Positions 61,299-63,565 of a stretch of DNA of 64,000 nt are shown one piece after another. The DNA is from a virus. A program made the translations under genes and the position numbers. Below the pieces are notes generated by a model that did no database searches, was not told where the DNA came from, and saw nothing but the letters and a program-made list of their open reading frames with translations. The stretch spans positions 68,739-132,738 of the IMG/VR virus record IMGVR_UViG_3300041964_000072. One strand, written 5' to 3'. How positions within the stretch are numbered: the stretch's first letter is position 1; every line of letters starts with the position of its first letter.

Positions 61299-61712
61299 AT
61301 GGAACATAACATCACGGTTATATTTAATGTTTGCAGAAATGTATCTTTCTACAATGTCGCCTCTACGGAAGGGCATATCGTTGGTGGATTGTTTGTAATT
61401 CCATTTGACGTAGATAATAGTTCTGGTGCTTTTCCTGGACAATCTTTTGTTGAGATTTGCGCTATGAATATCAACAAGCCCTTCCGTCGCAGAGGCTACG
61501 CAACGAGGTTAATGCAGTCCGTAATTAAGGACTTTGCATGGCAGTGGATTTGTCTTCAGGTAGAACAAAATCCTTCACCGGGAAACATGACCACGGAAGA
61601 ATTATTCCGCTGGTATGAAAAGTTGGGATTCGTTGAAAATTCTCCTTATCATGAGGGAGTGGGGTGGATGCATAAAGCTCCCTCATGTAGTCGCAAATTC
61701 ATAACTGAGTGA
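61299..61712 (+). CDS. GNAT acetyltransferase
   Basis: INKPFRRRGYATRLM...WYEKLGF. Confidence 0.85.
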   Translation: MEHNITVIFNVCRNVSFYNVASTEGHIVGGLFVIPFDVDNSSGAFPGQSFVEICAMNINKPFRRRGYATRLMQSVIKDFAWQWICLQVEQNPSPGNMTTEELFRWYEKLGFVENSPYHEGVGWMHKAPSCSRKFITE

Positions 61713-62180
61713 GCGAGTAGTGGCATCATTGACTATGCCTTTATCTATTACTTGATAGATATAAATTTTGGTGTTGATTACCGAGTGTCAACGAGGGCAT
61801 GTTCATGCCATTACTGTGTCTATGTATGTGCAATATTAGCTTAGGCTAGTAAAGCAAGTAGAGGTATCTTGATAATACCTTTGTCTATTACAGGCATAAA
61901 TCCTTTGTCAATCGGTTCCGTCCTTATCCACCACGTATACGCGAAATCAGTATTTCTGATCAAGCGAGTAGAGGTGTTATTGAATGCACCTTTGTCTTTA
62001 TAAAGAAGGCATAAACAAGAGTATTCAAAAAGCTCATGTCTTGTAATTCAATTGGGAACCCTTCTATGTATGCGCGAATTGGCTTCCAATAAGCGAGTAG
62101 CGGCATTCTTGATTATGCCTTTGTCAATTAAAAAATTGGCATAAAGTACTTAGAAATCAAATAAGCAATTCCTTTTTTGT
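61683..62180 (+). repeat. Tandem array of four TnpB omega-RNA-like scaffold+guide units
   Basis: Conserved GTA..YGC-hairpin-GCRAGTAG-hairpin(TTGA loop)-hairpin-...TCAA. Scaffolds span 61683-61791, 61820-61911, 61931-62028 and 62064-62160, and share the architecture of the tnpB 3' end. Confidence 0.85.
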
Positions 62181-62249
62181 ACCTAAGACAATCAATTTGT
62201 CAGTATAGACAATACATCTATATAACGAGGACAACATTCATGATTACAC

Positions 62250-63503
62250 ATGCCCAGTTACGGCTGTCAACAAATCCTTATTCATCCCGATAAAGACCTC
62301 AAAGCAATCCTCGAATTTATCTGTGAGCAATCCAAGAAAATTGCAAACCAAGGCATTTATTACGCTCGACAAATTTATTTTAAAACAGGTAGGGTTATCC
62401 AGAAATATGAACTAGAAAAAGTACTAAAACACACCTTAACCTATCAATCACTTTACTCTGCGGTGGCACAACAAACGCTTCAGGCAGTAGGAGAAGCCTT
62501 CAAGAGCTTCATTGGACTTTTAAGAGGAATCAAGAAAGGCACTGTAACTCAAAAACCAGAAATTCCAAAATACATCAAGAAAGAGTTTCATCTGGTAGCC
62601 TACCCCAAACAGACCTTGAAATTACAGGATAATCACATAATATTTGGCTTAGGAAAAAAGGTTAAGGCTTGGTTTGGGATCGACCACTTCAAGATCCCAA
62701 TGCCCAGTAACCTAAATTTTGACCAAATCCGTGAAATCCAATTCATTCCACGTAACGGCTGTTTCTACGCCAGTTTTAGCTACAAGACCCCTACAACCGA
62801 GAAAGCGGACGTAGACCCTCAGCGAGTACTAGGTATTGACCACGGACTCGACAACTGGTTGACGTGTGTAAGTAATGTCGATACCAGTTTTATTGTCGAT
62901 GGTCGTCACCTGAAGTCATTAAATCAGTGGTACAACAAACGAACCTCTGAGCTGAAAACTGGTCAGCCTAAAGGCTTCCGGTCTAAGCAGTTAGATCGAA
63001 TTACCGAAAAGCGCAATCGGCAAGCCAGGGATGCAGTAAATAAAGCCGCACGGATGGTACTCAATCACTGCATAGAACACCGTATCGGAACTGTGGTCTT
63101 TGGCTGGAATAAAGAGCAGAAACAAGGCATTAATATAGGGAAACGAAACAACCAAAATTTTGTGCAAATTCCCACAGGTAAACTAAAGGATCGTATTTCC
63201 CATCTATGTGAGCAGTATGGGATTCGATTCATAGAAACCGAAGAATCCTACACGTCTAGGGCATCATTTCTCGATGACGATTTTATTCCACAATGGGAAA
63301 AGAAACCGGAAGGTTGGAAACCGTCAGGAAATCGCAAGAAGCGAGGACTTTATATTACAAAGGAAGGAATAAAAATCAACGCTGACTGCAATGGTGCGGG
63401 GAACATCCTTCGCAAGGTAGCAACAACGGAAGGGCTAGACCTTTCCGGAGTTAGTAGGGGTGCCTTGACAACACCTTCAAGAGTCCGTATCTGGGCTGCT
63501 TGA
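62250..63503 (+). CDS. tnpB: TnpB (IS200/IS605 RNA-guided endonuclease) with intact RuvC
   Basis: RuvC I LGIDHG, RuvC II TEESYTS, RuvC III NADCNGA; cyanobacterial-type sequence without the Zn-finger cysteines. Confidence 0.95.
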   Translation: MPSYGCQQILIHPDKDLKAILEFICEQSKKIANQGIYYARQIYFKTGRVIQKYELEKVLKHTLTYQSLYSAVAQQTLQAVGEAFKSFIGLLRGIKKGTVTQKPEIPKYIKKEFHLVAYPKQTLKLQDNHIIFGLGKKVKAWFGIDHFKIPMPSNLNFDQIREIQFIPRNGCFYASFSYKTPTTEKADVDPQRVLGIDHGLDNWLTCVSNVDTSFIVDGRHLKSLNQWYNKRTSELKTGQPKGFRSKQLDRITEKRNRQARDAVNKAARMVLNHCIEHRIGTVVFGWNKEQKQGINIGKRNNQNFVQIPTGKLKDRISHLCEQYGIRFIETEESYTSRASFLDDDFIPQWEKKPEGWKPSGNRKKRGLYITKEGIKINADCNGAGNILRKVATTEGLDLSGVSRGALTTPSRVRIWAA

Positions 63504-63544
63504 TAATCTCGCTGAGTATGTCAACAGGGGTAACATTCAATACA
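63414..63544 (+). ncRNA. Native omega-RNA overlapping the tnpB 3' end plus flanking guide
   Basis: Ends GAGTATGTCAA at 63524; loop TTGACA (63465-63470) pairs with TGTCAA (63519-63524). Confidence 0.8.
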
Positions 63545-63565
63545 CGCAAACAACAGGAGTTTACA

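Follow-up and report, generated by a model that had tools for sequence, protein, structure and literature searches.

The window analysed here is the final 64 kb (64,000 nucleotides (nt)) of the 132,738-bp viral contig IMGVR_UViG_3300041964_000072, a linear and ~65% complete (per IMG/VR) sequence from a cyanobacterial virus of desert soil crust. Close to the right end of the window lies a tnpB gene (62250..63503, + strand), the sole tnpB on the contig, whose product of 417 amino acids (P0001) belongs to the IS605 OrfB family, per Pfam matches to PF01385 and PF07282 (OrfB_IS605 and Cas12f1-like TNB). Its native omega-RNA scaffold, identified by comparison with relatives, occupies 63417..63524 and covers the last 87 nt of tnpB, i.e., the native copy forms the 3′ end of the gene. 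Upstream of tnpB, outside any transposon end, stand four further scaffold units, which are described below as units 1 to 4. All four units and the native copy are found inside 1.9 kb on the + strand. In layout, the locus has what defines an omega-RNA array, namely at least two tandem full scaffolds, each with its own tail, beside a single-copy tnpB.

Unit 1 (61687..61791) is built of a two-tier stem 1, the AGTAG motif, and hairpins 2 to 4, of which hairpin 2 carries TTGAC in its loop and hairpin 4 is short; it ends in GTCAA. Unit 2 (61824..61911), which has TGC/GCA as its outer stem, unit 3 (61935..62028), and unit 4 (62068..62160) are scaffolds without hairpin 4. The unit scaffolds measure 88-105 nt, their starts are 137, 111, and 133 nt apart, and 18-35 nt lies between successive units. 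The scaffold starts and ends at the same positions in all units, and the gaps between them hold no left-end remnants. Identity is 72-78% among the four units and 62-74% between the units and the native copy. Tandem Repeats Finder reported nothing at the array because the copies are too diverged, and no Rfam family matched the array region. In unit 3, a second ATTCAA at 62046-62051, inside spacer 3, could pair with the unit 3 loop equally well, so that the scaffold of this unit could end at either of two sites separated by 23 nt.

The native scaffold of this TnpB family was defined from relatives with the phage left out, using 27 cyanobacterial loci and one viral locus whose TnpBs are 44-63% identical to P0001. 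In 15 of these loci the last ~120 nt before the transposon end align well and fold into four stems, with compensatory changes in 18 of the 30 pairs of the 15-sequence alignment. A covariance model of these 15 cyanobacterial native scaffolds (R1) was searched against the 64-kb window with filters off. It matched the native copy at 95.2 bits and units 1 to 4 at 39.1, 36.3, 29.1, and 24.1 bits, respectively (E-values from 3.7e-7 for unit 1 to 8.5e-4 for unit 4), and the next best match in the window scored 10.9 bits. The boundaries drawn by the model agree with those read by eye (GTA ... TCAA), except for the end of unit 3, where the alignment runs to 62051. An earlier reading of this DNA (the original prediction) had proposed that four units upstream of tnpB copy the omega-RNA architecture and had named a covariance-model search as a check; R1, built without the phage, recovers exactly these four units and the native copy. 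No further scaffold copies were found in the rest of the 132.7-kb contig or in the 10 kb past the contig end. When a sequence-only model was made from the R1 alignment, the units scored just 8.4-11.2 bits (8.4 bits for unit 1), and structure contributes 13-31 bits per unit. Since the sequence-only model scores far lower than the covariance model, it is the fold that carries the match of the units.

Stem pairing was counted by cutting each unit at fixed positions. Stems 1-3 are wholly paired in all four units (79/79 base pairs), with 3 outer and 4-7 inner pairs in stem 1, 5 pairs in hairpin 2, and 5-8 pairs in hairpin 3. The covariation of the outer stem 1 that the original prediction had pointed out is real throughout, the pairs being CGC/GCG in units 1, 3, and 4, TGC/GCA in unit 2, and AAC/GTT in the native copy. 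The inner tier of stem 1 differs wholly in sequence from unit to unit and forms a hairpin every time. Hairpin 2 occurs as GGCAT/ATGCC, GGTAT/ATACC, and GGTGT/GCACC, and the base of hairpin 3 is TATC/GATA in unit 1 and TGTC/GGCA in units 2-4. Minimum free energy folds of single sequences give the same three-hairpin layout with z-scores of -1.6 to -3.3 (-2.2 for unit 1, whose architecture is recovered, -2.05 for unit 2, and -3.25 for unit 3).

The scaffolds also share a pseudoknot, in which the loop of hairpin 2 (TTGAnn) pairs with the scaffold end (nnTCAA) over 5-6 bp in all five phage copies. The pairs read TTGAC/GTCAA in unit 1, TTGATA/TGTCAA in unit 2, TTGAAT/ATTCAA in unit 3, TTGATT/AATCAA in unit 4, and TTGACA/TGTCAA in the native copy, and the pseudoknot covaries in relatives too (TTGATA/TATCAA, TTAAG/CTTAA). 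Some of the pairings contain G-U wobbles (TGTC/GGCA, TTGAT/GTCAA), which pair only in + strand RNA. In relatives the scaffold closes with a subterminal hairpin rich in GC (stem 4), which TnpA requires for transposition. This hairpin 4 is absent from units 2-4, has 3 bp in unit 1, and has collapsed to 3 bp in the native copy. By this comparison, what the units have lost would be the RNA parts that TnpB does not need. In structure, the units are genuine homologues of the omega-RNA scaffold of TnpB, and selection very probably maintains them as RNAs of the omega-RNA type. As the original prediction had held, their divergence with compensated stems argues for selection and not for acquisition of the Cas1/Cas2 type; a search for cas1 gave no PF01867 match in the 132.7-kb contig (65% complete).

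P0001 is full length and retains every residue that is invariant among 20 family members. Its RuvC motifs, GIDHG (D197), FGWN (G285), and NADCN (D379), are invariant in the 20 relatives. In this family a glycine replaces the canonical RuvC-II glutamate, with FGWN aligning to MEDL of the Cas12f-like chain 8j3r, and the zinc finger is absent. A phmmer search of the PDB with P0001 found nothing, and Cas12f-like chains were reached only by profile. Matched by description and without tree placement, P0001 fits RIIr-5, a large RuvC-II-rearranged TnpB clade for which nuclease activity is predicted, not demonstrated (Altae-Tran et al., PMC10691335). From its conserved residues, P0001 appears catalytically competent, and its full length together with the retained family-invariant residues sets it apart from TldR, a nuclease-dead repressor. 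The nearest relatives of P0001 anywhere are just 66% identical, and hence it has long been evolving apart from the sampled transposon copies. No Y1 tnpA was found on the contig, and this absence, along with the collapsed transposase hairpin, indicates an immobilised, domesticated element. In the same biocrust metagenomes, high-depth contigs matched short conserved parts of tnpB (window 62888-63420) at 80-90% identity; these contigs represent other abundant TnpB-family members, probably from the cyanobacterial community including the host.

Each scaffold is followed on the + strand by a candidate guide, which we call a spacer in the case of the units. The spacers are located at 61792..61820 (spacer 1), 61912..61931 (spacer 2), 62029..62064 (spacer 3), and 62161..62183 (spacer 4, 12 nt and then a run of six Ts), and the native guide (63525..63544) is the right flank of the element. 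Per the alignment and the comparison of spacers, the boundary between scaffold and guide is sharp at the right-end TCAA and is followed by unrelated sequence, in agreement with the original prediction that a different segment follows each TCAA. Spacers 1 to 3 match nothing elsewhere in the phage genome, the Cyanobacteriales genomes, or IMG/VR. The reference spacer 1 contains a small hairpin (GGCATG-TTC-ATGCC, 61795-61808) whose arms equal the hairpin 2 arms of units 1 and 4. Targets of the guides, for which the original prediction had proposed a search of cyanobacterial hosts, plasmids, and phages, were sought in the phage genome with at most 3 mismatches and in 406 Cyanobacteriales genomes (5 + 401). 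The 18-mers of guides 1-3 were further searched in IMG/VR, and PLSDB plasmids and GenBank phages were searched at E-values up to 10. Each of these searches gave either chance-level matches or nothing. The left borders of relatives read TCATAG, GCTATAG, and TGACC and are mutually inconsistent, so no target-adjacent motif (TAM) is named here. TTGAY, the TAM suggested originally, is the loop half of the intramolecular pseudoknot and need not be a TAM.

The 5′ untranslated region of tnpB at 62222-62249 (ATAA then CGAGGACAACATTCATG) resembles the end of unit 1 with spacer 1 at 61788-61810 (TCAA then CGAGGGCATGTTCATG), and it also resembles the native end with its guide at 63521-63545 (TCAA then CAGGGGTAACATTCAAT). 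The likeness is marginal (shuffle p ~0.01 each among 28 comparisons); a fifth unit that has decayed, or a duplication of the flanks, could have left it behind.

Two Logan metagenome assemblies from biocrust contain the viral sequence without a single base difference. Contigs from four biocrust runs were aligned to the locus, and 3.1 kb was compared. Run X2 has an assembly bubble at 61721-61843, in which the reference allele has a depth of 8.7 and a minor allele a depth of 3.8, and the contigs flanking the bubble (2.9 kb and 27 kb) have approximately the summed depth of both alleles. The minor allele differs from the reference in a patch at 61751..61813 (+ strand) and has 11 differences, at 61751, at 61773, and at nine positions in the first 22 nt of spacer 1. 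Position 61751 is in the hairpin 3 loop of unit 1, and position 61773 is in the loop or closing wobble of its hairpin 4. The minor allele of spacer 1 does not have the small hairpin of the reference allele. No other differences were reported for this phage across the 3.1 kb. The variation is thus centred on the spacer and spares the stems, which is what is expected of a scaffold-plus-guide unit. The two alleles of spacer 1 agree at 13/22 positions, and for this reason the change looks like an exchange with a diverged copy, not de novo acquisition.

Only a single scaffold, the native one, is present in each Nodularia phage and at each of the four closest TnpB loci, and the unit motif was not found in IMG/VR. 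The scaffold family is present in 94/151 sampled Cyanobacteriales genomes, often in many copies, and none of the best 150 scaffold matches in this sample are in tandem. When IMG/VR was scanned by pattern for pairs of full scaffolds lying side by side, one true contig and nine chance matches were returned. The true contig, IMGVR_UViG_3300035698_022600, carries a recent 142-bp tandem duplication at the end of its tnpB (L011:4156-4417; L087:6933-7194 is the same contig), with two full scaffolds (112 and 111 bits) lying 23 nt apart and a gap that copies tnpB coding sequence. Such a duplication is a plausible first step towards an array, and this contig possibly holds an incipient one.

Solo and degenerate scaffolds in cyanobacterial genomes are single, irregularly 5′-truncated, and keep stem 4, which is the opposite of the phage units. 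A metagenome scan with the unit motif found ~360-nt elements devoid of an open reading frame (ORF) (L098:1-353; L096:3760-4180 on the - strand; L116-L135), the search pattern having biased which of these elements were hit. The elements are composed of a hairpin resembling a left end, an internal stretch that is conserved, and an omega-RNA scaffold that includes stem 4 and ends in GGTTCAA. They occur in 1-2 copies in ~20/401 Cyanobacteriales genomes, including a Microcoleus, and have no match in Rfam; at none of the 20 loci retrieved does a tnpB lie closer than 1.5 kb. They look like standalone omega-RNAs of the type of palindrome-associated transposable elements (PATEs). Units 2-4 and these ORF-less elements have the 5′ motif GTATGCGCGAA in common, where coding natives have GTAGCG. 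Descent of the units from the ORF-less elements was considered and not adopted, as the shared 5′ motif is the one point in its favour and pairwise identities do not separate solos from natives. Likewise, what seemed to be a conserved guide of these elements in eight genomes is plain synteny, these genomes being ~95% identical.

With moderate confidence, we favour the explanation that the locus is a natural omega-RNA array, in which four standalone, miniaturised omega-RNA genes upstream of an immobilised cyanophage tnpB provide extra guides for the adjacent TnpB. Judged from the sequence, use of the units as guides is likely. Transcription of the array, on the + strand, would begin at the end of the GNAT gene or come from read-through. 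The GNAT acetyltransferase ORF (61299..61712, + strand; Pfam Acetyltransf_7/1, ORF list) has its stop codon 26 nt into unit 1, and the array could for this reason be transcribed by read-through from that gene. TnpB would bind each scaffold through the conserved core, i.e., AGTAG, hairpin 2, and the guide-adjacent pseudoknot, and would cut the transcript back on the 5′ side of every scaffold, in the manner of ISDra2 TnpB acting on its own mRNA. The outcome would be four extra ribonucleoproteins beside the native one, each directed to a DNA sequence of its own, probably one carried by the host or by competing mobile elements. These stages, from transcription through binding and processing to cleavage, are inferred, as is the kind of target. 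More tentatively, though it could well be right, the virus may use TnpB as a multi-guide weapon without CRISPR machinery, with one transcript processed into guides against several sites in the host or in rival elements and with guides turning over in populations. Such turnover in natural populations is suggested by the two alleles of spacer 1. Of the multiplexed, phage-borne RNA-guided nuclease that had been predicted, the homologous scaffold-spacer-scaffold series beside an intact tnpB is borne out, and no target for any spacer turned up in the collections searched.

Several observations weigh against an array of guides for the resident TnpB. No target was found for spacers 1-4 or for the spacer 1 variant in any collection searched. 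Spacer 1 is self-folding in its reference form, and the T-run of spacer 4 comes after just 12 nt. A promoter and terminator scan gave no excess of promoter-like sites over shuffled sequence. The nuclease activity of the RuvC-II-rearranged clade to which P0001 is matched is a prediction from the literature. The array is in no related phage, and hence there is no evidence of conservation across lineages. Finally, the units were not copied recently from the resident scaffold and are solo-like in having GTATGCGCGAA, so their compatibility with this TnpB is assumed.

The units could also be functional omega-RNA-like RNAs that do not serve as guides of the adjacent TnpB and instead load or redirect host TnpBs, act as decoys, or regulate tnpB expression. 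The selection seen on their structure would apply equally to such RNAs, and the units are unlike the resident scaffold and share GTATGCGCGAA with the tnpB-less solos of the Microcoleus type, which, if used at all, must rely on TnpB in trans. The abundance of the scaffold family in Cyanobacteriales (the 94/151 genomes, many with multiple copies) and reports of standalone omega-RNAs working in trans (PMC10691335) point the same way. Nevertheless, we regard this as unlikely, given that the units are tightly linked to the phage's only tnpB and that the transposase hairpin has been lost in both the native copy and the units, a pattern suggestive of a common effector and a common history. Moreover, neither distinct 3′ tails nor a precisely conserved, covarying junction of scaffold and guide would be needed by a pure decoy.

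Somewhat less probable still is that the units are nonfunctional relics, i.e., right ends of IS605 elements or PATEs that were serially inserted or duplicated, then truncated, and are now decaying. An ~25% divergence with 0 of 79 stem pairs broken and with a covarying pseudoknot is not expected under neutral decay, nor do relics account for 5′ and 3′ limits and a hairpin 4 deletion that are the same across units, for 18-35 nt gaps free of left-end remnants, or for minor allele changes that avoid the stems. It is true that solo and truncated scaffolds are common in cyanobacterial genomes, that another viral contig has the recent 142-bp tandem scaffold duplication, and that no targets were found for the spacers; however, the genuine relics in bacteria look different. 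We give very little credence to the idea that the repeats act as DNA, whether as single-strand replication or recombination signals or as protein-binding iterons. The hairpins could form in single-stranded DNA as well, and the locus lies among replication and nucleotide-metabolism genes, but the architecture, the + strand RNA-only wobbles, and the pseudoknot match the omega-RNA family position for position, and the one DNA-level signal of this family, the TnpA hairpin, is exactly what is missing.

Such a system is not as new as the original prediction had taken it to be. Omega-RNA arrays, with repeats of >60 bp and sharp boundaries between scaffold and guide, have been described for sigma-factor-linked dead TnpBs and for Cas12f-related groups and have been proposed as the source of CRISPR arrays, and standalone omega-RNAs acting in trans have been described as well (PMC10691335). 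Because arrays were already described, the phage locus is not a new kind of system. Like the published arrays (sigma-TnpB and V-U40-43; Altae-Tran et al., PNAS 2023, PMC10691335), it lacks an adaptation module and sets whole scaffolds (>60 nt) in tandem, each sharply bounded from a tail of its own, alongside one TnpB-family gene in single copy. It differs from them in being carried by a cyanophage and in having a predicted-active IS605 effector in place of a dead sigma-linked protein or Cas12f. Further differences are that the array lies upstream with the native scaffold retained downstream, that the units are shortened and 72-78% identical, and that one spacer is polymorphic. PATE-like mini-elements and standalone omega-RNAs, as they are portrayed through citation in PMC10691335, likewise have scaffolds without an adjacent protein gene and can supply guides in trans. 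In that portrayal PATEs keep both transposon ends with their hairpins and occur singly, whereas the phage units are without the left end and the right-end hairpin and are clustered head to tail. The subterminal TnpA hairpins and left end of a PATE, of a miniature inverted-repeat transposable element, or of a solo IS605 end are thus missing here, hairpin 4 being retained in true solos.

TnpB and all Cas12 proteins recognise a pseudoknot that, in ISDra2, is formed by the nucleotides immediately 5′ of the guide, and there an omega-RNA trimmed to ~100 nt is as active as the full RNA or better (PMC10097598). Shared between ISDra2 and the phage scaffolds are a core of ~100-116 nt with several stems, a guide-adjacent pseudoknot, a TCAA right end, and a guide directly downstream. 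In contrast to ISDra2, which has one guide per element, the P0001 clade has no zinc finger and has Gly at the position of the canonical RuvC-II Glu, and the pseudoknot partner is the hairpin 2 loop in the phage scaffolds as opposed to a 5′-proximal segment in ISDra2 (PMC10097598). TranC and type V CRISPR arrays (Jin et al. 2025, as cited in PMC13565253) also combine a TnpB-derived effector with several guides in a repeat-spacer layout. So far as that citation describes them, the phage locus is set apart by repeats that are complete scaffolds and not near-identical, with no split into a trans-activating RNA (tracrRNA) and a short CRISPR RNA (crRNA). The short (~23-50 nt), near-identical repeats of a CRISPR array are likewise not what is found, the phage repeats being 88-105 nt long and 72-78% identical. 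Phage TldR is another phage-borne, domesticated, and immobile TnpB derivative that works with a guide RNA for the benefit of the phage (bioRxiv 10.1101/2023.11.30.569447). The catalytic residues are gone from TldR, which works with one guide (bioRxiv 10.1101/2023.11.30.569447), whereas P0001 has the catalytic set of its family and five candidate guides. The locus is therefore a distinct variant: it is borne by a virus, its array of strongly diverged, naturally minimised scaffolds lies upstream of a probably active tnpB of the IS605 type whose own 3′ scaffold is retained, and one of its spacers is polymorphic.

Natural arrays of whole scaffolds are few and uncharacterised, and the phage locus offers a compact, testable case. 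Its units of 88-105 nt show which RNA parts evolution keeps after transposition has been abandoned. If the guides are used, the locus shows that a virus can multiplex an RNA-guided nuclease without Cas1/Cas2, and a TnpB clade that has been little studied would gain short scaffolds that come ready-made. For type V CRISPR arrays, the presumed origin is serial duplication of omega-RNA segments. If the multi-guide reading is true, the locus would be a living intermediate between a single-guide transposon nuclease and a repeat-spacer immune or counter-defence system.

The genes around the locus are phage-like and include NUDIX, KilA-N, GNAT, RuvC, and DNA methylase genes. No viral relatives were found for the GNAT neighbour. 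The tnpB of Nodularia siphoviruses (Ravarandavirus) is the sole nucleotide similarity of the contig to GenBank phages. On a 3.6-kb metagenome contig, a close relative of this TnpB (65% identical, with a Y1 tnpA and a single scaffold) adjoins a gene with an Acb2/Tad1 hairpin domain (L138:138-551, - strand). The family of insertion sequences to which that relative belongs may be common in cyanophages.

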